DNA of 64,000 nucleotides from Gemmatimonadota bacterium (GTDB taxonomy: Bacteria > Gemmatimonadota > Gemmatimonadetes > Gemmatimonadales > GWC2-71-9): assembly GCA_046726475.1 (NCBI GenBank), contig JBKPAO010000036.1:674-64673 (forward strand). Direction: 5' to 3'. The notes beneath the pieces are model-generated. The model saw only the letters and a list, made by a program, of their open reading frames with translations, was not told where the DNA came from and ran no database searches. The position numbers were made by a program, and so were the translations under genes. Positions 3,398 through 51,693 of the stretch are shown here, piece by piece (position 1 is the stretch's first letter; the number at the start of each line of letters is the position of its first letter).

Positions 3398-7144
<3,747 letters not shown>

Positions 7145-7155
7145 TGGGGGCTCCT

Positions 7156-7197
7156 AAACAAAAACCCGAGGCCAAAACGCCTCAGGGGTGGCGTTTT
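7156..7197 (-). promoter_or_regulatory. attenuator-like alternative hairpins in the metH leader (terminator versus anti-terminator)
   Basis: On the minus strand, AAAACGCC-N8-GGCGTTTT (7197..7174) overlaps GAGGC-GTTTTG-GCCTC (7183..7168). The second hairpin is followed by GGGTTTTTGTTT and then the AGGAG RBS. The two hairpins are mutually exclusive. Confidence 0.4.
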
Positions 7198-7262
7198 AGC
7201 AGTTTGTTTTACGTGGCCGCAATCAGCGCAAATCGCCACGGGATCGATTTTTCGGCTGCTTC

Positions 7263-12348: not shown

Positions 12349-12564
12349 ATGGAATGTGACCAGGTCGTAATCTGCCTGTGGGAATATCTGGACCAGGAGT
12401 TGGCTCCGGAAGATGCAGCCGAGGTGAGGGTACACCTGAGCCGATGTCCTCACTGTTACCCGCTATACTGCTGGGACCGGGCGCTGCTGGATCTGCTCGC
12501 GCGGGTACGGAACTCCTGTACAGCTCCGGCAGGCCTGATTAGGTGGGCGCGGCGCCTGGTCTAG
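12349..12564 (+). CDS. zinc-finger (ZAS, HxxxCxxC) anti-sigma factor-like protein, RsrA-like, without adjacent sigma gene
   Basis: 71 aa: MECDQVVICLWEYLDQEL...HLSRCPHC...SCTAPAGLIRW. AGGAGA RBS lies 8 nt upstream. The pattern matches RsrA-type redox anti-sigma factors. Confidence 0.7.
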   Translation: MECDQVVICLWEYLDQELAPEDAAEVRVHLSRCPHCYPLYCWDRALLDLLARVRNSCTAPAGLIRWARRLV

Positions 12565-39800: not shown

Positions 39801-40116
39801 GGTCAGGTGGGTGAGAGTCAGCACCAACCTAAGGGAGCAGGGCACCGGGTGTAAGAGTGGCGCAGTCCCACCCGCTACTTTTGCAGTAGTCTGCCGCGGA
39901 GTGCGGCGTGAGTCCCTGCTGCAAGACTTGGTAATGGGTCTCACAACAGATTGCGAATCCGATGTTTGTCGTGAGTGGCACCAGTCTCGCCTTTTTCCCA
40001 GGCGAGGGCGCGCGGTCGTATGCGGCCAAGCGCAGATCCGCCCGATAGAGCACACCCGGAGTGATTCGGGGCCGCAAAACTAGAGGTCTCACCAGGTCCC
40101 TGGTTGAGATAGCTCG

Positions 40117-40449
40117 GTGCCGAAGGAGGATGAGATGAGGTCGCCGCACGACGCAGAGCGCACCATGACTGCGCCCGAGACGCTCGGCCTGGACACCAGG
40201 GTCGAGATCCGGAAGGCCGCGGTCAAGTTGCTCGAGGAGATGCCGGAGGGAGTCGGACGGCTGGTCATCGATCTCGCCCGCACCCGCCATGTGGACTCGG
40301 CTGGTCTGGGAGCCCTCATGCTCATCCAGCGACGCGCCGCCGAGCGGCGGCAGGTCGTGGTACTACGGAATGCGAGTGAAGAGATCCGCTTCCTGCTGCT
40401 ACTCACCAAGCTGGACGATCTCTTTCAGCTCGAGTCGGCACTGGCGTAA
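40117..40449 (+). CDS. STAS domain protein (anti-sigma-factor antagonist-like)
   Basis: 110 aa with LVIDLARTRHVDSAGLGALMLIQRR...VVVLRNASEEIRFLL, typical of the SpoIIAA/STAS fold. Confidence 0.78.
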   Translation: MPKEDEMRSPHDAERTMTAPETLGLDTRVEIRKAAVKLLEEMPEGVGRLVIDLARTRHVDSAGLGALMLIQRRAAERRQVVVLRNASEEIRFLLLLTKLDDLFQLESALA

Positions 40450-40617: not shown

Positions 40618-40986
40618 ATGGCTAAGGGAAAGCGGCGGCGGCGCGTCTTGATCGTAGAGGACGAGCCGGCGCTCCGATTGAGCTATGAGCGAGCGTTCAA
40701 TCCACGGTACGATCTGATCTTCGCTTCCACCGGCGCCGAGGCCCTGGAGCAACTCGAGCAGCACAAGCCGGATGTTGCCGTCCTGGACATGCGACTTCCC
40801 GACACCGATGGGGTCGACCTGCTGCGCCGCATTCGTCAGAGCCAACCCGAGCTTCCCGTCATCATCACCACCGCCTACATGAGCATCGAGCCTCAGCTCA
40901 AGGTTCTCGACCTTCCCCACTCGGGCTACATCGTCAAACCGTTCCGCCTCGACGAGCTCGGCGCGCGGATCGATGCCGTCTCATGA
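40618..40986 (+). CDS. single-domain response regulator (CheY-like receiver)
   Basis: 122 aa with RVLIVEDEP, phospho-acceptor context DVAVLDMRLPDTDG, and a conserved T/K (ITTAY...KPF). Confidence 0.88.
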   Translation: MAKGKRRRRVLIVEDEPALRLSYERAFNPRYDLIFASTGAEALEQLEQHKPDVAVLDMRLPDTDGVDLLRRIRQSQPELPVIITTAYMSIEPQLKVLDLPHSGYIVKPFRLDELGARIDAVS

Positions 40987-43241: not shown

Positions 43242-43943
43242 TCAGTCCGACCGACGCCGGCGTGGTGGCGTGCGGGGTATCAGCACGTACTCCCACAGGA
43301 TGGCGGCCAGAAGTGCCCCTGCTATGGGTCCAATCCAATAAACCAGCTGTCCCACCCACGCATTCGCGACGACCGCGGGTCCGAAGGCGCGAGCCGGGTT
43401 CATTGCTGCACCAGTGAGCGGACCACCGACCAGAATATCGAACAACAGCACCAGTCCGATACCGAAGCCACCGACCCGGGGTGCGTCCGGAGATACCGCG
43501 GTGCCGAACACTGCCGAGACCAGGAAGAAGGTCAGCACCAGCTCGATACCGATCGCCTGGCCCAAGGAAACCGAGCTCGCAATCACAGGCACCCCCAGCA
43601 TCGAGGCGTGCACGGCGTGCAGTGGGAGGAGGAGCTTCACCAGGAACGCAGCGATGATCGCCGCAACCAGTTGGGTCAGAATGTAGGCAGCTGCGGATAT
43701 CGGAGCGATTCGGCGGGTAACCAACAGCCCCAGTGTCACGGCCGGGTTGAGATGACCGCCCGAGATCGTCATGGTGGCTGTAATCATGACTGACAGGACT
43801 ACTGCGTGGGCCAGGGCGATGCCGAGAAGACCGATTCCACTATTGGGAAAGCCGCCGTTCACCACGACCACGGCGGCTCCAATGAACACCAGGCCGAAGG
43901 TACCGATCGCCTCGGCGGTCAGGCGACGTGTCAGCGAAGGCAT
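43242..43943 (-). CDS. aqpZ: aquaporin/MIP family channel (AqpZ-like)
   Basis: 233 aa with two NPA boxes (GGHLNPAVT, GAAMNPARAF). Confidence 0.92.
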   Translation of the reverse strand: MPSLTRRLTAEAIGTFGLVFIGAAVVVVNGGFPNSGIGLLGIALAHAVVLSVMITATMTISGGHLNPAVTLGLLVTRRIAPISAAAYILTQLVAAIIAAFLVKLLLPLHAVHASMLGVPVIASSVSLGQAIGIELVLTFFLVSAVFGTAVSPDAPRVGGFGIGLVLLFDILVGGPLTGAAMNPARAFGPAVVANAWVGQLVYWIGPIAGALLAAILWEYVLIPRTPPRRRRSD

Positions 43944-44001: not shown

Positions 44002-45243
44002 TTACTCGGCTCGCCGAAAGAGGAGGGCGGCGTTAATTCCGCCGAAGCCGAACGAGTTGCTCAGCAGGTAGTCGGGCTGGAGCTCCATACCCTGGTCGGG
44101 GACATGGCGCAGGTCGCAGGCAGGATCGGGTGAATCGAGGTTCACGGTCGGTGGCACCCAACGCCGCCGGCTGGCCAGGGCGCAGATGGCGGCTTCGATC
44201 GCTCCGCTCGCTCCCAGCGCGTGGCCGTAGTACCCCTTGGTGCCACTAAACGCAACACGGTAGGCGTGATCACCGAAGACCTGCTTGATGGAAGAAGTCT
44301 CGGTGGGATCGTTGAGCGGCGTAGAGGAACCGTGGGCGTTGATATAACCAATCTCATGCGGAGCGACGTGGGCCTCGACGAGTGCGTTGCGCATGGCGCG
44401 GGCTGCCTGCTTACCATCGGGCCTGGGCGCGGTCATGTGGTGAGCGTCGTTGGTCAGGCCGAACCCGCATACCTCCGCGTACACCGGCGCGCCACGTGCC
44501 AGGGCACGCTCTCGCTCCTCGAGTACCAGCACCGCCGCGCCTTCCGCCATGACAAAGCCGTCGCGCCCCAGATCGAACGGGCGGCTCGCGTGCCCCGGGT
44601 CGTCGTTACGGGTCGACATCGCCCGGATGATGGCAAACGCCCCGAAACACAGCGGCGCCAGTGGTGCCTCGGCCCCACCGGACACCATGATGTCCGCTTC
44701 ACCTCGGACGATTGCGCGGAAGCCTTCGCCGATGGCGATGGCGCCCGAGGCGCAGCTCATTCCATTAGTCGAGTTCGGGCCGGTGAACCCGAACTCGATC
44801 GCGATGTTGCAGCTGGCTGCTCCTGCGAATACGGTGAGCGCCAATCCCGGATCCACAGCACGGGGGCCTTCCATCAAGAAGTTCCGGTATTGCGCCTCTC
44901 CATGGGCCACACCCCCTAGAGCGGTACCCATGGTCGCACCGATCCGGTCGGGGTCCTCCCGAGCGAAGTCGAGCTCTGCATCAGCCAGCGCCATTCGGGT
45001 TGCAGCGACACTGAACTGCGAAAAACGATCGAGCCGTCTTGCCCTGCGCTCCTCGATGTGGTCGGTCGCGGAAAAGTCGGCCACCTCTCCCGCTATCCGT
45101 GACTTGAACATCGAAGGATCGAAGCGGGTGATGCAGCGGACCGCGGAACGTCGGTCGAGCAACCCCTGCCAGAGTCCCTCGACGCCCAGGCCGATGGGAG
45201 TAATGGCACCAATCCCAGTGATGACGACGCGACGCAGGTTCAT
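44002..45243 (-). CDS. fabF: beta-ketoacyl-ACP synthase II
   Basis: 413 aa with RVVITGIGAITPIG, the active-site Cys in NGMSCASGA, and His residues in INAHGSSTP and GHALGASG. Confidence 0.95.
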   Translation of the reverse strand: MNLRRVVITGIGAITPIGLGVEGLWQGLLDRRSAVRCITRFDPSMFKSRIAGEVADFSATDHIEERRARRLDRFSQFSVAATRMALADAELDFAREDPDRIGATMGTALGGVAHGEAQYRNFLMEGPRAVDPGLALTVFAGAASCNIAIEFGFTGPNSTNGMSCASGAIAIGEGFRAIVRGEADIMVSGGAEAPLAPLCFGAFAIIRAMSTRNDDPGHASRPFDLGRDGFVMAEGAAVLVLEERERALARGAPVYAEVCGFGLTNDAHHMTAPRPDGKQAARAMRNALVEAHVAPHEIGYINAHGSSTPLNDPTETSSIKQVFGDHAYRVAFSGTKGYYGHALGASGAIEAAICALASRRRWVPPTVNLDSPDPACDLRHVPDQGMELQPDYLLSNSFGFGGINAALLFRRAE

Positions 45244-45256
45244 TAGAGCTCCGGAA

Positions 45257-45414
45257 GGGGCGGTCGGTCGGTCAGTCGATCAGTCGGCCGGTGTCCACTA
45301 GCGACGTTCATCTATACTACCATTTCTGGGGCCATATTATTCCGCACCCTTTGGGTAGTTTGCTCCCTGCGTGCCGTTTACCTGACCGCCCGACCGCCCG
45401 ACCGCCTGTCCGCC
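45257..45414. repeat. GGTC/GACC-rich inverted repeat pair flanking the SRPBCC stop and the fabF upstream region
   Basis: GGCGGTCGGTCGGTCAG (45259..45275) against CTGACCGCCCGACCGCC (45382..45398), with 16 of 17 positions complementary. The local units (GGTC, CAGTCG; CCCGACCG) are tandemly reiterated. Confidence 0.45.
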
Positions 45415-45864
45415 AGCCTCCACGTGCCTCGCTATTCCCGCCAACGTCCGCGATGCGATGCCGTGGATGAACACTGGGCCGATGAACCAGTTCGCCGCCG
45501 CGGACCCCACGATCGGCCAGGCCGGCCCATCCCACTCATGCACGATGCTCACATCGGTCTCATCCCCCGAGGGCTGGATCTGCCATACCACATCCATCCC
45601 CCTGGTGATTCCCCGTATGTGGCGATAGTGAATTGCCCCGGCGAGCTGGTCGAGCCACATCTCCGACACCCACCAGGTCGGATACCTGAGCGGACCAAAC
45701 GGTCGCCAGGCAGCCATCTCCACAATCGCTCGATCGCCGGTGCGCTCCAGGACGCGCACCCAGCGATAGTGACTGAGGAGTGCCGGCCAATGTTCGACGT
45801 CTGCGGCTGCCCGGAACACCCGCGCTGGGGATGTTTTCATGCGACGCTGGTCGACGGTGCGCAT
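45337..45864 (-). CDS. SRPBCC (START/polyketide cyclase/COQ10-like) ligand-binding protein
   Basis: 175 aa with SPARVFRAAADVEHWPALLSHYRWVRVLE..., the Polyketide_cyc2-like pattern. Its start overlaps the methyltransferase stop by 1 nt. Confidence 0.78.
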   Translation of the reverse strand: MRTVDQRRMKTSPARVFRAAADVEHWPALLSHYRWVRVLERTGDRAIVEMAAWRPFGPLRYPTWWVSEMWLDQLAGAIHYRHIRGITRGMDVVWQIQPSGDETDVSIVHEWDGPAWPIVGSAAANWFIGPVFIHGIASRTLAGIARHVEAGGQAVGRSGGQVNGTQGANYPKGAE

Positions 45865-46559
45865 CAGCTTCCCGGCAACCAGGTGGCCACCAGGCGGAAT
45901 CCGAGCCGCTGGTGAACTGTTCCGGCTATTCCCGCCCGAGCCATCAGCCCAAGGAGCTCGGACCGGCTGAAGCCTCTCATTATGGAAGTCACTCCATCAT
46001 GGAGGGTGACCCGGTCGAAGCCCAGCAGATGCCCCCCGACCCAGAACGATGAAGCCGCGAGGCGATGCCGGCGGAGGTCTCCCAGGATCACCGCGCGCCG
46101 AGCCAATCGATCGCAGGTCCGAAGGAGGTGAACCACGGAATCGGCGGTCAGATGATGGGCCAGTTGGCTCACGAGCACCACATCGACGCTCTTGTCTCCG
46201 AGCGGGGGGGCTCCGGCACAGCCAACCGCCACGGTGAGTCCCTGTTCCCGAGCCAGACCAGCCGCAGCCCGGCTCAGCTCCAATCCGATCGGAACCATGC
46301 GGAGACCGCGGCGGGTGGCCCACCGCACGGCGACCTGCGGGAGGTCGCCCATGCCAGTACCGAGGTCGAGCAGAGTCAGGGTGGTCCCGGGCGCGATGCC
46401 GGCAAGAGTGCGTTGGAGACCAAAGCGGACCGCCGCGGCTCCCCCAAACCATCGATTCGCCCGGGCGATGTTGCGCAACGATTCGGCGACCACCGCCGGA
46501 TCCGCCGAGGGATCGTCCAGCAGCTCCGCGCCGATGGGGCTGATACCTAAGCCGGCCAC
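45864..46559 (-). CDS. class I SAM-dependent methyltransferase
   Basis: GTG 46559 lies 2 nt after the upstream stop. SAM motif I is LLDLGTGMGDL, followed by an acidic loop and motif II (VDVVLVSQLAHHL). Confidence 0.85.
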   Translation of the reverse strand: MAGLGISPIGAELLDDPSADPAVVAESLRNIARANRWFGGAAAVRFGLQRTLAGIAPGTTLTLLDLGTGMGDLPQVAVRWATRRGLRMVPIGLELSRAAAGLAREQGLTVAVGCAGAPPLGDKSVDVVLVSQLAHHLTADSVVHLLRTCDRLARRAVILGDLRRHRLAASSFWVGGHLLGFDRVTLHDGVTSIMRGFSRSELLGLMARAGIAGTVHQRLGFRLVATWLPGS

Positions 46560-46561
46560 GG

Positions 46562-47044
46562 CTATTCGATGGCGGCGTAGCCGCCGCGGTAGTACAGCAA
46601 GGGCCGTCCCTTGCTGGTGGACCCGCCAGTCACCCGGCCGACCACGATGGTGTGATCGCCGCCGGGATACTCGGCGTACCGTTCGCACTCGATGTGCGCC
46701 AAGGCGCCACCCAGCAGTATCCGGCCATCCGGAGTGAGCTGGTAACCGACGCCGTCGAATCGGTCTTCATGCTCGTCGGCGAAGCGGCGGGCAAGAGTCT
46801 CCTGGGAGCTGGAGAGGACGTTGATCGTAAACTTACTCGCCTGGCTGATCGCTGGGTGCATTGCGGCTTGGTGGTCGATGCACACAGAGATCAGCGGCGG
46901 GTGGAGCGACACCGAGGCCAAGCTGTTTGCAGTCATGCCCAACGGCCGCCCGTCGGGGGTAGCCACCGTGAGCACGGCGACTCCGGTAGCAAACCGTCCC
47001 ATCAACTGCCGAAATTGCGCGGCATCGACCTCCGCAGTGGTCAC
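46562..47044 (-). CDS. flavin reductase family protein (FMN-binding split barrel)
   Basis: 160 aa with FRQLMGRFATGVAVLTV...GMTANSLASVSLHPPLISVC, typical of the flavin reductase-like domain. Confidence 0.87.
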   Translation of the reverse strand: MTTAEVDAAQFRQLMGRFATGVAVLTVATPDGRPLGMTANSLASVSLHPPLISVCIDHQAAMHPAISQASKFTINVLSSSQETLARRFADEHEDRFDGVGYQLTPDGRILLGGALAHIECERYAEYPGGDHTIVVGRVTGGSTSKGRPLLYYRGGYAAIE

Positions 47045-48264
47045 AGAAGCATCCGGGCGAGAAAGATCGGATTCAGCACCTCGCGAGCCGGCACGAAGTC
47101 ACCGGTGACGCCAATCAGCGTATGCGCCATCCCGCGCCGGCGCCCCAGACGAGCGACGGCACGATCGAACAGAGTAGGAAATGCCATCCCGTAGCCGATC
47201 ATTCGCTCAACCAGCCACTTTCCTCCAAAGACACGCCGGCGTCCGCGGCGGTAGGGTACCAAACGGTCCACCGTCAGCGGCCCAGGAACACTCAGCGCGT
47301 CGATGGCGGTCTCCGCCAGCAGCTCGGCACCTCTTAGAGCGCTATAAATCCCCTCGCCCGTAAATGGATCGAAGAAATCGGCGGCATCGCCCACGAGCGC
47401 GGCTCCCGGCGCAATCACCCGGCCAGACCACGCTGCGAACGGTCCCGTGGTGAGTATGGGGCGGACAACCTCGGCACCCGCGAGTCGCCCGGCGACCGGA
47501 GGAAACTCGGCCAGCATCTCGGAGAAGAATTGCTTGACCCGCCCTCCTGCGCGTGCGGCGCTTCGCGCCGGAACGACGAGTGCGACGTTGGTACAGTCGT
47601 CGCCGATGGGGTTGATCCCGACATATCCGGCTCTTCGGACGTGCAGTTCCGCATAGGGCCCGGTCTCCCGTACCCCGGCCATGTGGGCGACGAAGGCTAC
47701 CCTGCGAGGAAACCCGTGAGAGCGGCGGCCAATGCGGCGCGCCACGACCGAGCGTAATCCGTCGGCGCCGACGGTCAGGCGAGCCCGGATTCCCCGGCGC
47801 AGTCCCGCAGCGTCCCGTACCAGCGCACCGGCTACGGCTCCGCCATCGTACAACAGCTCCTCGACGGTCGTGCGTTCCAGAACTCGCGCGCCAGCACGGC
47901 GGGCCGCGCCGACCAGCTCGCTATCGAGGAGTCTTCGTGATAAGGCCAATCCCGTAGGGCGGAACGGCCGCTGACTGGCGCGCTCGAATATTCCGTGCAG
48001 ACGGGCACCTCTGGCGGCGGTCACCGCGGTTCCACGAGGCGCCGCGGCTCCCGCACACTCCAGTGCTTCCACCACACCGAGGCGGCTGAGGACCCGGACG
48101 GTCTCCGGGCTCATGTATTCGGAACAAGCCTTGTCTCGCGGAAAGCCCGCACGGTCGACTGCGGTGACCGAGAGGCCGGTACTGGCAAGGAAGGCGGCAA
48201 GGGCGCTCCCCGCTGGGCCCGCTCCAACAACGAGCACGTCCACGTCCACCGAGTGGTCAGTCAA
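47041..48264 (-). CDS. FAD-dependent oxidoreductase, geranylgeranyl reductase family
   Basis: 407 aa with VDVLVVGAGPAGSALAAFLA (dinucleotide fold), FPRDKACSEYMSP and the GDAADFFDPFTGEGI motif. Confidence 0.85.
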   Translation of the reverse strand: MTDHSVDVDVLVVGAGPAGSALAAFLASTGLSVTAVDRAGFPRDKACSEYMSPETVRVLSRLGVVEALECAGAAAPRGTAVTAARGARLHGIFERASQRPFRPTGLALSRRLLDSELVGAARRAGARVLERTTVEELLYDGGAVAGALVRDAAGLRRGIRARLTVGADGLRSVVARRIGRRSHGFPRRVAFVAHMAGVRETGPYAELHVRRAGYVGINPIGDDCTNVALVVPARSAARAGGRVKQFFSEMLAEFPPVAGRLAGAEVVRPILTTGPFAAWSGRVIAPGAALVGDAADFFDPFTGEGIYSALRGAELLAETAIDALSVPGPLTVDRLVPYRRGRRRVFGGKWLVERMIGYGMAFPTLFDRAVARLGRRRGMAHTLIGVTGDFVPAREVLNPIFLARMLL

Positions 48265-49171
48265 GCCACCACCAAAAAGTCCAGGCCAGCAACGTGGCGA
48301 GAGCTATTGCCATGGCGTTCACGGCGTCGTTGTTGAGCCAGCGGAAGCCTCCCGTCAAACGGGTTGTGGTACCACAGCGATGCCTCCCCCACTCACTCTG
48401 CACATCACACCGGGGACAGTGGAAACGTCCCTGCAGTCTGCCGCCGATGGTAGAGTCCAACAGCATCCCAACGAAACCTATCAGCGTTCCGGCAAGCGCG
48501 AGCGACGGGACACCAGCCGCCCAAGCGCCGGTGAGTGAGACCAGCGCTGCGCCCACGACTGCCCCCCCGGCGCCGAGGGTGGTGACCCCACCACTGGTGC
48601 CAGGTACAACCTGCCGTCTGGTCCAGAGCAGACGAGGTGGCACTGGGCTCAGCGATCCGACGGATGTTGCCCAGGTATCGGCGGCGGCAGCTGCCAGGCT
48701 CGCCGTGACGAGCCAGATCCTGAGAGGGAAGTCGTCCGGTGCGACGACCGCGACCAGTGCCGCCACTCCGCCGTTCGCGAATACCTGCCAGGCGTCGCGG
48801 CGATCCCCTTTGAGATCCAACTCCGGCGCGAATCGTTTGGCGGTGAGCCTCGATATCAGGCTGCTGGAAACGAAAAAGACGGCCAGGACCGCGCCGCCTT
48901 GCCACCCCGTACCCAACAGTATCAAAACCCCGATGATCCACCCGGCGAGAGCTCCCCCGAACGACAGGGTTCCGGCCTGCCACGCTATGCCGGAAACGCC
49001 GGCGCTGACGAGCGCAGCAAGCGGGAACGAGAGCGGAGTCAGGGGTGCTCCACCTCTCCTCGCAGCATTTCCAGAATTCGCGCCCGAAGCTTGTTCGGGC
49101 AGGTCTCTCGCGCAGCGCGAGTCTCCAGCATTATGAGGAAGCTCTGTTCGAATTGAGCGCACTTGAAGCAA
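48257..49171 (-). CDS. DUF92 (COG1836, TMEM19/VTE6 family) integral membrane protein; start uncertain
   Basis: Polytopic, with FFVSSSLISRL...KGDRRDAWQVFANGG, AAADTWATSVG, VPGTSGGVTTLG and a C-terminal CPRC...HRCG ribbon. The longest ORF overlaps the anti-sigma gene, and no clean ATG or GTG lies just downstream of 49039. Confidence 0.78.
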   Translation of the reverse strand: MLQVRSIRTELPHNAGDSRCARDLPEQASGANSGNAARRGGAPLTPLSFPLAALVSAGVSGIAWQAGTLSFGGALAGWIIGVLILLGTGWQGGAVLAVFFVSSSLISRLTAKRFAPELDLKGDRRDAWQVFANGGVAALVAVVAPDDFPLRIWLVTASLAAAAADTWATSVGSLSPVPPRLLWTRRQVVPGTSGGVTTLGAGGAVVGAALVSLTGAWAAGVPSLALAGTLIGFVGMLLDSTIGGRLQGRFHCPRCDVQSEWGRHRCGTTTRLTGGFRWLNNDAVNAMAIALATLLAWTFWWWLD

Positions 49172-49284
49172 TCCCGGCAGTGCTCAAGATGCTGGCGGAT
49201 TTCGACCATGAGCTCGGGGGTCAGCTCCCGCTTGAGGTAGTCATCGAGATGGGCCATTGCCTGGACGCAGTCGACCCCGCTCAT
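49039..49284 (-). CDS. ZAS-type (HxxxCxxC) anti-sigma factor, RsrA-like
   Basis: 81 aa with C...LDDYLKREL...HLEHCRDCFKC...CPNKLRARI. The ATG overlaps the sigma gene stop (ATGA). Confidence 0.82.
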   Translation of the reverse strand: MSGVDCVQAMAHLDDYLKRELTPELMVEIRQHLEHCRDCFKCAQFEQSFLIMLETRAARETCPNKLRARILEMLRGEVEHP

Positions 49285-49868
49285 GTCGGGGTCTCCCGCG
49301 GCTGGATGTAGCCCATTTCCACTGCATGGGAATAGAGCTCGGCCTGAAGCTGCCGCCGAGCCCGGAACAAGCGTGACTTGACCGTACCAACCGGAATCCG
49401 GAGAGTTTCCGCGATCTCGGCGTACCGCATTCCTTCCACGTCGCTCAGCACCAACACCTCGCGAAATTCTTCCGGCAGTGAATCAATCGCTTCCAAGACC
49501 TTGTCGTCCACAATCTGGGAAAAGAAGGATCCTTCCGGATCCACCTCCTGTATCGACCGGTCGAGCGCATGAGGCTCGGCCGCTTCGAGGTCCATCGCGA
49601 TCGGCTCGTGTTTGCGGCGGCGATAATCGTTGATAAACGTGTTACGCAGGATGGTCAGCAACCAGCCTTTGGCGTTGGTCCCGGGACGATACTGTCTCCA
49701 GGATCGATAGGCCTTGAGCATCGTGTCCTGCACCAGATCCTCGGCCTGGCTGGCATCGCCGGTGAGCCGAAGCGCTACTCGATACAACGCATCCAGGTGA
49801 GGTAACGCTTCCTCGTCGAACATGCGCCCAGGGCCAGACGGCTCAGCCATGAGGGAATGTAGCAACAA
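49281..49868 (-). CDS. ECF (group 4) RNA polymerase sigma factor
   Basis: Region 2 (LYRVALRLTGDASQAEDLVQDTMLKAYRSW) and region 4 (LPEEFREVLVLSDVEGMRYAEIAETLRIPVGTVKSRLFRARRQL). The start could also be ATG 49850. Confidence 0.92.
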   Translation of the reverse strand: MLLHSLMAEPSGPGRMFDEEALPHLDALYRVALRLTGDASQAEDLVQDTMLKAYRSWRQYRPGTNAKGWLLTILRNTFINDYRRRKHEPIAMDLEAAEPHALDRSIQEVDPEGSFFSQIVDDKVLEAIDSLPEEFREVLVLSDVEGMRYAEIAETLRIPVGTVKSRLFRARRQLQAELYSHAVEMGYIQPRETPT

Positions 49869-49870
49869 CC

Positions 49871-50536
49871 TTGCGTGTCTCGCGACCGGAACTATGTTCC
49901 GGCCCGAATCCCGTGCCCAAGCTCTCCGTTCCCGCCCTCATCCCGCTCAGCCTTCTGGAGGCAATCCGGAACCTCGACACCCCGGTCGAGGATGGTCTGG
50001 ATGAGCTGGCTGAGGAGATCGCGGCGCGACGCCTCGGCCTCAGTCCGACTGTTGCTGCCCAGATTCAGCGCTACCGTCAGGCAGTGGGCAAGGGCGGCTC
50101 CGTCGATCAGGATGAAACTGTCTCAGTGTTCCGGTTGGTGGGGCGGCGCACCGATGCTCACCTGGTGTTTGCAGATGCCGGACGTCGCGCGGCTCGCTAT
50201 GCCTACCGTCGCGCCGGCTCTTCCCGTACCCTGGCCAAAGTCTCTCCCGGGAGAGTGGCTCATCGCCTGGCAATTCGAAGCGCGGCACGGGTTGCCCGAG
50301 CCGTGTTCGGCGGTGACCTCAACCCGCGCTCGCAGGAGCTGGAAGTTCAGATGGCCTCTCCCCTTTCCATAGTAGCGCTACCAACCGGTGAAGCCTGTGT
50401 CTTCTACGGTTCGGTGTACCAAGAATTGCTGCGGGGTCTTACCGGATTCGAGGGAGCGGTCATTCACGAGCGCTGCCGTGCCCGGGGGGACGACGCCTGT
50501 GTGTGGCGAACAGCAGTGGCAGAGGTCTACGAATGA
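49871..50536 (+). CDS. hypothetical protein with C-terminal V4R-like (4-vinyl reductase type) Cys motif; start uncertain
   Basis: The C-terminus reads GEACVFYGSVYQELLRGLTGFEGAVIHERCRARGDDACVWRT, resembling the V4R small-molecule-binding domain. The TTG start at 49871 precedes a palindrome; an in-frame GTG at 49913 is an alternative. Confidence 0.5.
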   Translation: MRVSRPELCSGPNPVPKLSVPALIPLSLLEAIRNLDTPVEDGLDELAEEIAARRLGLSPTVAAQIQRYRQAVGKGGSVDQDETVSVFRLVGRRTDAHLVFADAGRRAARYAYRRAGSSRTLAKVSPGRVAHRLAIRSAARVARAVFGGDLNPRSQELEVQMASPLSIVALPTGEACVFYGSVYQELLRGLTGFEGAVIHERCRARGDDACVWRTAVAEVYE

Positions 50537-51693
50537 TCGATCGCGCCGAGCTCCAGCAAGCGCTTTCCGAAGCCGGCCTGGACGGCTGGCTTCTGTATGC
50601 GTTCCACGGTCTCAATCCAGTCGCCGTTCGAGTGCTGGGACTGACCGGCATGAACACCCGCCGGCTCTTCGTGCTCTTCCCCCAGGAGGGAGAGCCGGTT
50701 GCAGTAGCCCACAAGGTCGAGCTGCAGGGGATGGAGAGTTTCCCGGGCCGGGTGATTCCGTATGCTCGGTGGAGCGAGCTGCACGAGATCCTGCGATCCC
50801 TGGTCAGCGGTCGAAAGGTCGCCATGGAGATCTCTCCCCAGGATGCGGTGCCGTATCTCGATCGAATCCCGTATGGCGTTGTCGAACTGCTCCGGCACGT
50901 GGGGGCTAACGTGGTGCCGTCCGGAGCGCTGGTCTCGCGCTTCGCGGCCAGTTGGAAGGCTTCAGAGCTCGAGGATCATCGCGCCGCAGCGGAGATCCTG
51001 GCCGACGTGGGACGGCGCGTCCTCGCGCAGGCGGTAGGTGAGACCGGCCGAACATTGAGCGAGACCGGGCTGCAGGCTCGGGTGGTCGCCGAGGTCGAGG
51101 CGCGCGGCCTGGTCTTCGATGAGCGGCCGATCGTCGCGTTCGGCCCCAACTCCGCCAAACCTCATTACCAGCCTCAGGCCGGAAGCGACGCGATGCTTAA
51201 GAGCGGCGACGTTGTGCTGCTGGACCTCTGGGCGGGGCGGAGCCGCACCACGGTATTTGCCGACCAGACCTGGATCGGGTTTGCCGGCTCAACGGCGCCG
51301 GAGCGGGTTCGGCAGGTGTGGCAGAGTGTACGACAGGCCCGGGACGCCGCCATCACTGTCATTCGTCGAGCCTGGGACGACCGTCGAGCAATCATGGGAT
51401 TCGAAGCCGACCGGGCCGCCCGGGACGTGATCGAGCGGGCCGGATTTGGCGATGCGTTTGTTCACCGGACCGGGCATTCCATCGATCGGGACCTCCATGG
51501 CTCCGGCCCCCACCTGGACGACTATGAGACCCACGATGATCGACTGCTGGTTCAGGGAGTCGGCTTTTCGGTCGAACCGGGGATTTATCTCGCCGGCGAG
51601 TTCGGAATGCGGAGCGAGGTCAATGTGTTCATGGGAGCGGCGGGTCCTGAGGTGACTCCCCAGCAACCGCAGGTGGAGCTGATTACGGGGTAG
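50533..51693 (+). CDS. M24 family metallopeptidase (Xaa-Pro aminopeptidase-like)
   Basis: ATG 50533 overlaps the upstream stop (ATGA). Metal ligands appear in DLWAG...D, HRTGHSID and the FSVEPG...EV pattern. Confidence 0.88.
   Translation: MIDRAELQQALSEAGLDGWLLYAFHGLNPVAVRVLGLTGMNTRRLFVLFPQEGEPVAVAHKVELQGMESFPGRVIPYARWSELHEILRSLVSGRKVAMEISPQDAVPYLDRIPYGVVELLRHVGANVVPSGALVSRFAASWKASELEDHRAAAEILADVGRRVLAQAVGETGRTLSETGLQARVVAEVEARGLVFDERPIVAFGPNSAKPHYQPQAGSDAMLKSGDVVLLDLWAGRSRTTVFADQTWIGFAGSTAPERVRQVWQSVRQARDAAITVIRRAWDDRRAIMGFEADRAARDVIERAGFGDAFVHRTGHSIDRDLHGSGPHLDDYETHDDRLLVQGVGFSVEPGIYLAGEFGMRSEVNVFMGAAGPEVTPQQPQVELITG

Follow-up and report, generated by a model that had tools for sequence, protein, structure and literature searches.

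What kind of molecule would be made by an operon that opens with an extracytoplasmic function (ECF) sigma factor and a ZAS anti-sigma factor, and continues with a DUF92 membrane protein, a flavoprotein of the geranylgeranyl reductase (GGR) superfamily, a flavin reductase, a methyltransferase and an SRPBCC protein? The question is raised by a 64,000-nucleotide stretch of a Gemmatimonadota genome (GenBank assembly GCA_046726475.1, contig JBKPAO010000036.1; hereafter the window), in which seven tightly packed genes occupy positions 45337-49868 of the minus strand. An earlier note on this DNA listed the seven genes, proposed that they form a thiol-redox-triggered pathway acting on a prenyl lipid or prenylquinone, and named profile matching of each family as a check. 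Open reading frames (ORFs) are found at the coordinates given there, and the Pfam and NCBIfam matches uphold all seven family names. The chemistry, however, is best read differently. The operon contains a widespread and previously uncharacterized four-gene module, consisting of the methyltransferase, the flavoprotein, the SRPBCC protein and a FabF-like beta-ketoacyl-ACP synthase (KAS; ACP, acyl carrier protein), which is related to alkylresorcinol operons rather than to prenyl-lipid enzymes.

Conservation of the operon and its four-gene core

One genome per GTDB species was scanned with a flavoprotein alignment as the query, which gave 80 loci onto which the window proteins were mapped, and a five-sequence alignment of Chloroflexia-type SRPBCC proteins retrieved 80 further soil loci from metagenomes. 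The nearest homologs of the window proteins are 67-90% identical and all belong to Gemmatimonadales. In about 60 loci from Gemmatimonadota, each a species representative, the genes follow one another as DUF92, flavoprotein, flavin reductase, methyltransferase, SRPBCC and FabF-like KAS, usually with an aquaporin gene next after the KAS. An arrangement shared by so many species is not due to chance, and the seven-gene operon, with its sigma and anti-sigma genes translationally coupled to the enzymes, is confirmed. The synteny search that the earlier note had suggested thus bears out the enzyme genes and adds the KAS, but the sigma and ZAS genes are lineage-specific and not a defining feature of the system. 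Both are present in only 17 of the ~60 Gemmatimonadota loci, all in the subclade of the window; five loci (L021, L031, L033, L037 and L043) have the ZAS gene without an adjacent sigma gene, and ~29 have neither. The sigma/ZAS pair stands at the head of the operon only in one Gemmatimonadales lineage.

Beyond the order Gemmatimonadales, the methyltransferase, flavoprotein, SRPBCC and KAS genes form a unit without DUF92, flavin reductase or sigma factor, which was found in Chloroflexia, Longimicrobiales, Paenibacillus humicus, Baltobacteraceae and one unclassified metagenome-assembled genome (MAG). Among 163 related loci, this core stays together across five phyla. The order methyltransferase-flavoprotein-SRPBCC-KAS holds without exception at the soil-metagenome loci (80/80, of which 35 are complete and the others are cut by contig ends), while their flanks vary between sublineages; no ACP, acyl ligase or type III polyketide synthase (PKS) was seen in the flanks of these 80 loci. 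The DUF92 and flavin reductase genes occur only in Gemmatimonadota loci and are additions of that phylum to the four-gene core. The fabF gene had been described as simply following the operon after a gap. Because the four-gene order holds across five phyla while the flanks change, "fabF" is instead a member of the conserved core, in which it always lies beside the SRPBCC gene.

At least one lineage has enlarged the operon further. A gene for a B12-binding radical-SAM protein lies between DUF92 and the flavoprotein in L019 (8532-9988), L046 (8544-9991) and about nine other Gemmatimonadaceae loci. Its best NCBIfam match is TIGR04072, "lipid biosynthesis B12-binding/radical SAM protein" (316 bits, cut-off 360), which is consistent with a lipid product. 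Nothing relevant came from literature searches that paired DUF92 with a sigma factor or Gemmatimonadota with alkylresorcinol, or that covered the gene combination; as the earlier note had supposed, we found no published description of the module or of its sigma/ZAS coupling.

Two side observations concern individual loci. A 4.6-kb contig labeled as a Burkholderiales MAG (L033) carries ZAS, DUF92, radical-SAM and flavoprotein genes in the Gemmatimonadaceae-type arrangement; its flavoprotein groups with those of L031 and L043 in the tree and its aligned ZAS region is nearly identical to theirs, so that it is probably, judged by these sequences, a mis-binned Gemmatimonadota contig. In one Chloroflexia-like sublineage (L118, L156, L121, L138 and L126), the four-gene module is preceded by a divergent thioredoxin-reductase-like gene, an identification that rests on an N-terminal motif only.

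A tailoring pair shared with type III polyketide synthase operons

The partners of the methyltransferase and flavoprotein in other genomes are informative about the chemistry of the module. Homologs of both directly follow a type III PKS gene, confirmed by Pfam, in L062 (Vicinamibacteria), L066 (Bryobacteraceae) and L061 (Methylomirabilia). In L082 (Sericytochromatia), a flavoprotein homolog precedes a type III PKS gene and no methyltransferase was detected. The PKS-linked methyltransferases and flavoproteins match the same NCBIfam models as those of the window (PRK06202 and GG-red-SF, respectively). No type III PKS was found in the window or within 10 kb of any Gemmatimonadota locus. The constant partners of the pair are condensing enzymes, being either SRPBCC with the FabF-like KAS or a type III PKS. 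In a rough neighbor-joining tree, the PKS-linked flavoproteins of L061 and L062 branch beside the Gemmatimonadota clade, those of L066 and L082 lie near the root, and sequences from Actinomycetota, Pseudomonadota and Ardenticatenaceae form a more distant group.

This arrangement is that of known operons. In the hidABC genes of the cyanobacterial hierridin/alkylresorcinol operon, HidA is a methyltransferase shown to methylate 5-pentadecylresorcinol, HidB is an FAD oxidoreductase proposed to hydroxylate the ring, and HidC is the alkylresorcinol synthase; a corresponding mtr-fdo-t3pks operon has been described in 58 planctomycete genomes (PMC6836626, PMC8086630, PMC10896814). We compared our family profiles with the mtr and fdo reference sequences of G. 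maris, taken from the supplement of the planctomycete paper with the errors of optical character recognition (OCR) included. The methyltransferase profile aligns collinearly to G. maris Mtr at positions 3-90 (E 1.6e-8) and 98-218 (E 2.4e-9), and sequence motifs are common to the window's family and Mtr. The flavoprotein profile aligns to G. maris Fdo in three collinear pieces (2-32, 34-141 and 205-314; best E 3e-15), and both matches run over the whole length. A PDB sequence search with the methyltransferase gave no match. By sequence comparison, the window pair is homologous to the Mtr/Fdo (HidA/HidB-type) tailoring pair.

The likeness to Hid-type operons thus covers the enzyme families, with a PRK06202-like methyltransferase and a GGR-like FAD oxidoreductase adjacent and in the same order, and L061, L062 and L066 provide homologs in the hidC>hidA>hidB arrangement directly beside type III PKSs. 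There are differences as well. Where Hid-type operons have a type III PKS, the window has the FabF-like KAS and an aromatase/cyclase-like SRPBCC protein, and it adds the flavin reductase, DUF92 (in some lineages also the B12 radical-SAM protein) and the ECF sigma/ZAS control. The product of Hid-type operons is a lipid with an alkyl chain, and a similar product here is what we infer from the genes.

The flavoprotein is related to, and distinct from, prenyl reductases and halogenases

The flavoprotein matches Pfam FAD_binding_3, and its best NCBIfam match is GG-red-SF (TIGR02032; 134.4 bits, below the cut-off of 158.8), followed by QhpG, an aromatic-ring hydroxylase. With the GGR/MenJ family it shares the FAD-binding fold, the PRxKxC motif with the equivalent of Cys47, and GDAAxxxDPxTGxGI; K45 and C47, which align to "rCGEGLS" of the archaeal GGR 3oz2, are invariant in 76/76 aligned flavoproteins. 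It differs at YxWxFP, which we take from GGR structures to be the substrate-channel motif. The window flavoprotein has GYVGINP at this site, and both W and F are lost in every KAS- or PKS-linked member (YVGINP or YxGxAP, e.g., GYCGIAP), whereas the distant relatives in Actinomycetota, Pseudomonadota and Chloroflexota keep GY[GA]W[IVL]F (GYGWIFP, GYAWVFP). No isoprenoid genes lie near the module-linked clade. The score against the MenJ model is 80.6 bits with a cut-off of 700, and MenJ orthology was rejected on this score and on the motif loss. The prenyl-reductase identity suggested in the earlier note is, for the same motif replacement and for scores below both cut-offs, not sustained.

In the PDB, FADH2-dependent phenol/pyrrole halogenases come closest to the flavoprotein, both in sequence and in predicted fold (pLDDT 85), and archaeal GGR comes next. 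The top Foldseek matches are FasV (8zop, TM 0.82), PltA, CndH, ChlB4 and Bmp2, with 3oz2 at TM 0.76. Like FasV, CndH, PltA and Bmp2, which need a separate flavin reductase, the window flavoprotein is accompanied by one. A halogenase identity was nevertheless rejected: the catalytic lysine is absent, CndH K76 being aligned to Pro76 (Leu in most relatives), and so is WxWxIP (GWFWYIP vs. GYVGINP). Judged from these motifs, the flavoprotein is neither a halogenase nor a canonical prenyl reductase. The flavin reductase gene, which the cluster has only in Gemmatimonadota, adjoins the flavoprotein gene through a GTGA overlap, and by analogy its product would supply the flavoprotein with reduced flavin.

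The SRPBCC protein and its ketosynthase partner

The SRPBCC protein has as its sole PDB sequence matches two aromatase/cyclases of type II PKSs, WhiE-ORFVI (E 1e-4) and TcmN. Its AlphaFold model (pLDDT 87) agrees with TTHA0849 at TM 0.82, with WhiE, TcmN and ZhuI at TM 0.75-0.80, and with the COQ10-like CC1736 at only 0.56. The predicted fold fits aromatase/cyclases better than CC1736, which disfavors the COQ10-like quinone binder that had been considered for this gene. The TcmN pocket is taken here to include W28, Y35, W63, W65, S67, M91 and W95; in an alignment to TcmN and WhiE, their counterparts are W26, Y33, W64, W65, S67, M90 and W94, and 7/10 of the pocket positions are identical. His82 and His109 lie at the positions of TcmN R82 and Q110. 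H32, Y33, R34, H82 and H109 are invariant across phyla, and invariant His, Tyr and Arg residues are more what an enzyme than a passive carrier would show. This is a small subfamily, with only 725 representatives at E < 1e-3 among 1.84 billion clusters. In the representative library, proteins of other lineages fuse an FAD domain to SRPBCC (P0380, P0353) or a methyltransferase to SRPBCC (P0251), which indicates that these proteins are functionally tied together.

The KAS carries C164, H304, H340 and NSFGFGG. By score, the KASs of modules in different phyla resemble each other more than they do the FabFs of the PDB; the Paenibacillus enzyme (L068), for example, scores 503 bits against the window KAS, 368 against Bacillus subtilis FabF and 383 against Thermus FabF. 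A FabF-family ketosynthase together with a single-domain SRPBCC protein, similar in fold to TcmN, WhiE-ORFVI and ZhuI and matching most TcmN pocket residues, is the combination of ketosynthase and aromatase/cyclase seen in type II PKSs.

The gap between the SRPBCC and KAS genes measures 93 nt in the window and contains repeats, as had been described; it is 0-40 nt in relatives. Two 25-nt arms (45259-45283 / 45382-45406) form an inverted repeat made of 8-nt tandem units, and one of them lies in the gap, which itself contains such units. The same kind of unit (CCCGACCG) encodes the C-terminal tail of the SRPBCC protein, ~25 amino acids (aa) that are specific to the window and not conserved. Folded as RNA, the insertion has a predicted energy of -76.5 kcal/mol (z = -2.9); its structure stops ~15 nt short of the KAS start codon. 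The insertion may serve in mRNA processing or stability, or represent the remnant of a small repeat element.

Sigma/anti-sigma pair and gene junctions

The sigma factor consists of regions 2 and 4 only (Pfam r2 73 bits, r4_2 72 bits; TIGR02937 102.8 bits, cut-off 42.9), and its best NCBIfam match is SigH_actino, at 154 bits and below the cut-off of that model. The ZAS proteins are ~80 aa long, without a membrane segment. Their ligands C6, H32, C36 and C39 are invariant in 23 relatives and correspond to all four zinc ligands of RsrA (C11, H37, C41 and C44), so the RsrA-type HxxxCxxC signature recognized in the earlier note belongs to a full ligand set. The score against the RsrA model TIGR03988 is 49 bits, with a cut-off of 62.5. 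The pair therefore resembles the actinobacterial SigR-RsrA and SigH-RshA systems, in which the ECF sigma gene likewise overlaps the gene of a small soluble ZAS protein, but belongs to another phylum, falls below the NCBIfam equivalog cut-offs for both proteins, and has its anti-sigma gene translationally coupled to a gene for a DUF92 membrane protein. The idea of a redox switch remains plausible.

The ZAS-DUF92 adjacency and the stop/start overlap are kept even in the clade without an adjacent sigma gene, which hints at a direct relationship between the two proteins. Upstream of the ZAS gene in this sigma-less clade lies a GGGAAC-N17-GCTTCA box, cleaner than the recurrent GGAAC box that precedes the sigma gene and overlaps the start region of the divergent gene. 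A sigma-70 promoter scan found none, and a terminator scan gave hits no commoner than in shuffled sequences, all inside genes. DUF92 itself is firmly identified by Pfam (178.7 bits, cut-off 27.5, full-length profile), and it scores 87.7 bits against TIGR00297 (cut-off 205.85). One further ZAS-like protein was seen in the window, an orphan of 71 aa with the motif HLSRCPHC (12349-12564, plus strand) that is 31% identical to the operon anti-sigma factor, with no sigma gene seen adjacent.

Most of the gene junctions described in the earlier note were read again from the sequence without change: the ATGA overlap of sigma and anti-sigma genes, the 8-nt overlap of DUF92 and flavoprotein (TTGACTGA), provided that the flavoprotein starts at TTG 48264, the 2-nt gap between flavin reductase and methyltransferase to GTG 46559, a residue at which the relatives also start, and the 1-nt overlap of methyltransferase and SRPBCC (TGATG). 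The overlap of flavoprotein and flavin reductase is also 4 nt long, but reads GTGA, not ATGA. Alignment of the relatives places the sigma start at the conserved ATG 49850 and not at TTG 49868, where the ORF opens.

The remaining junction needs a revised start. An overlap of the anti-sigma and DUF92 genes does exist, although it is likely a 4-nt CTGA rather than the long overlap of the mechanically called ORF, which opens at TTG 49171 and overlaps the anti-sigma gene by 133 nt. The anti-sigma stop codon lies inside NTGA in every relative (loci L001-L050), read as GTGA in L040, L041, L050 and the sigma-less clade, as TTGA in L003, and as CTGA in the window (49039-49042) and its nearest relatives. 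Because the NTGA junction is kept in all relatives, the most likely DUF92 start is CTG 49042, predicting a 4-nt overlap and a 261-aa protein; with C at the variable position, as in the window's clade, either a CTG start or coupling by termination-reinitiation is implied. The same conservation led us to reject a frameshift fusion of ZAS and DUF92 and likewise an overlap of 130 nt, and an apparent ZAS-DUF92 fusion in L007 is a product of indels in that assembly.

A possible phenolic-lipid pathway and its alternatives

The reading that we favor, while giving it slightly less than an even chance, is a stress-induced pathway to a methylated and oxygenated phenolic lipid, in which the KAS and the SRPBCC protein replace the type III synthase. 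The KAS would extend a fatty acyl-ACP using malonyl-ACP, and the SRPBCC protein would fold or cyclize the product to a resorcinol-type ring. The methyltransferase may then act on the ring by adding a methyl group, and the flavoprotein may oxygenate it with reduced flavin from the adjacent flavin reductase, to yield a membrane lipid of the methylated alkyl-phenol, hydroquinone or quinone type. DUF92 would be a membrane step confined to Gemmatimonadota, to which Gemmatimonadaceae would add the B12 radical-SAM lipid enzyme. In the window's subclade, the ECF sigma factor and the RsrA-like ZAS protein appear to have been placed at the head of the operon and coupled translationally to DUF92, which suggests that production of the lipid would follow inactivation of the anti-sigma factor, with thiol oxidation as the probable trigger. 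The analysis shows the structure of the operon, the conservation of the module, the homology of the tailoring pair and the relationships in fold; substrates, product and stimulus are in this scheme what we infer from gene content. A stronger statement, that FabF-like KAS and SRPBCC constitute an unrecognized ACP-dependent "type II-like" route to alkylresorcinol/hydroquinone-type phenolic lipids, which feeds Hid-type tailoring and in Gemmatimonadales provides a redox-active lipid on demand through an RsrA-like switch, is offered tentatively and as rather unlikely to be right.

Several points weigh against the phenolic-lipid pathway. To our knowledge, FabF-type enzymes do not make poly-beta-keto chains alone. 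The module also departs from type II PKSs in that no chain-length factor or dedicated ACP occurs within the cluster, the KAS is FabF-like and passes the housekeeping fabF equivalog cut-off (TIGR03150; 514.4 bits vs. 493.75), and the catalytic Arg69 of TcmN is replaced by Met69 in 49/53 SRPBCC family members (the PDB contains an entry for the TcmN R69A mutant, 2res). None of the modules of the KAS/SRPBCC version has a product on record, and a type III PKS may be encoded elsewhere in the genome, outside the 10-kb flanks. As far as we know, the sequence of a ZAS protein cannot reveal redox sensitivity. An ECF promoter upstream of the sigma gene is not definable with confidence, as the window does not conserve the spacing between GGAAC and any -10-like element. 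The scores against the G. maris genes are low and fragmented, because the supplement sequences are OCR-damaged. The role of HidB/Fdo itself has never been shown biochemically, and expression of G. maris Fdo gave no detectable change (PMC6836626, PMC8086630, PMC10896814).

Three other explanations were weighed. The closest to ours in probability, and in our view still unlikely, is fatty-acyl remodeling that follows the BfaB/BfaA logic of tuberculostearic acid: the methyltransferase would add a methylene at a double bond and the flavoprotein would reduce it, while FabF would supply or elongate the chain, the SRPBCC protein would bind it, and sigma/ZAS would switch membrane composition under stress. 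The fully canonical FabF nature of the KAS fits such a scheme, as does the TIGR04072-like B12 radical-SAM enzyme inserted into the operon of Gemmatimonadaceae; GGR-family enzymes do reduce isolated C=C bonds of lipid chains, and the RpoE-ChrR furan fatty acid system of Rhodobacter is an example of ECF/ZAS-controlled fatty-acid modification. The methyltransferase, however, is not of the cyclopropane-fatty-acid synthase type, and among its family are HidA and Mtr, whose substrates are resorcinol rings. Elsewhere, this tailoring pair is coupled to type III PKSs, makers of aromatic products, and the invariant His, Tyr and Arg of the SRPBCC pocket are typical of a catalyst, not a carrier.

Somewhat less probable again is the prenyl pathway, in which a prenyl chain is saturated by the GGR-like protein and a prenyl phosphate is phosphorylated by DUF92, while a quinone ring receives a methyl group from the methyltransferase and the SRPBCC protein serves as a COQ10-like chaperone. 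The membership of DUF92 in the VTE6 family (Pfam) speaks for it, VTE6 being the plant phytyl-phosphate kinase, as do the GG-red-SF match, the invariant GGR Lys-x-Cys motif (K45, C47), the good fold match to archaeal GGR (3oz2, TM 0.76), and the JGI names for the homologs ("menaquinone-9 beta-reductase", "COQ10"). In the actinobacterial loci L074 and L083, moreover, a weakly methyltransferase-like ORF lies immediately upstream of the flavoprotein gene, an arrangement that presumably resembles the Rv0560c-MenJ pair. Yet no prenyltransferase, polyprenyl synthase or quinone-ring gene was found in the 163 loci, DUF92 is absent outside Gemmatimonadota, and it is KAS or a type III PKS that invariably accompanies the pair. 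The module-linked flavoproteins have lost the W and F of YxWxFP that distant relatives keep and stay below the GG-red-SF and, by far, the MenJ cut-offs, and the SRPBCC model is closer to aromatase/cyclases than to CC1736. Finally, a housekeeping fabF and unrelated enzymes might have no common function and merely be inherited together beside an autoregulated sigma/anti-sigma pair. Close relatives indeed conserve the whole neighborhood (TonB receptor, M24 peptidase, ccm genes), and the KAS exceeds the fabF equivalog cut-off. We nevertheless regard this explanation as highly improbable: the four-gene core is kept across five phyla while the flanks change, gene fusions join FAD or methyltransferase domains to SRPBCC, stop and start codons overlap throughout the operon, and module KASs are nearer to each other than to FabFs of the same phylum.

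Feature coordinates and neighboring genes

Table 1. Features of the operon and its immediate flanks (positions in the window).
Feature	Position	Strand	Basis or remark
ECF sigma factor, SigH/SigR-like	49281..49850	-	Pfam Sigma70_r2 and r4_2; start set by alignment of relatives
ZAS anti-sigma factor, soluble, 81 aa	49039..49284	-	Pfam zf-HC2; C6...H32xxxC36xxC39
DUF92 (VTE6/TMEM19 family) integral membrane protein	48257..49042	-	Pfam DUF92; proposed CTG start
FAD flavoprotein, GGR/halogenase/QhpG superfamily, HidB/Fdo-like clade	47041..48264	-	Pfam, NCBIfam, motifs, fold
NAD(P)H:flavin reductase, HpaC/HsaB-type	46562..47044	-	Pfam Flavin_Reduct, 147.5 bits
SAM-dependent class I methyltransferase, PRK06202-like, HidA/Mtr-like family	45864..46559	-	Profiles, motifs
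SRPBCC/Polyketide_cyc protein, type II PKS aromatase/cyclase-like	45337..45864	-	Pfam, PDB matches, fold
Window-specific insertion	45244..45406	-	Includes both the 3' tail of SRPBCC and the 93-nt gap before KAS
FabF-like KAS	44002..45243	-	TIGR03150; C164/H304/H340 triad
Aquaporin-Z-like MIP channel	43242..43943	-	Pfam MIP; synteny; membership in the system uncertain
Divergent pair: 221-aa weakly V4R/BchJ-like protein and M24 peptidase	49871..51693	+	Synteny

In every Gemmatimonadota locus whose sequence reaches that far upstream, the divergent pair borders the operon. The 221-aa protein has a weak BchJ/V4R-like match (E 0.006), and its gene overlaps that of the M24 peptidase; a PDB sequence search with it gave nothing significant. 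V4R domains bind small hydrophobic or aromatic ligands, so that the protein could be a sensor.

Two riboswitches above their gathering scores lie elsewhere in the window. A SAM-II (SAM_alpha) riboswitch (7176-7249, minus strand, 48 bits) is directly upstream of a 1248-aa ORF (3398-7144, minus strand) that may encode methionine synthase. A c-di-GMP-I riboswitch (40039-40124, plus strand, 42 bits) is immediately upstream of a small STAS-type ORF (40117-40449), anti-sigma antagonist-like, which is followed by a response regulator (40618-40986) and ccmA/B/C-like genes.

Implications

Gemmatimonadota and Chloroflexota are phyla abundant in soil, with a lipid and secondary metabolism that has barely been explored, and the module described here, compact and sharply defined, occurs in at least five phyla. 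It probably escapes standard detection of biosynthetic clusters because it resembles "fabF plus hypothetical proteins". If the KAS/SRPBCC pair does replace a type III PKS, it would represent a new enzymatic logic for phenolic lipids, and a function would be assigned to the poorly understood HidB/Fdo flavoprotein family. Through its coupling to a sigma/ZAS pair, the system offers direct access for experiments, with thiol oxidants as inducers. We suggest that the product may act in the membrane as a redox or antioxidant lipid induced by stress, similar to the polyketide quinones of mycobacteria and Streptomyces.

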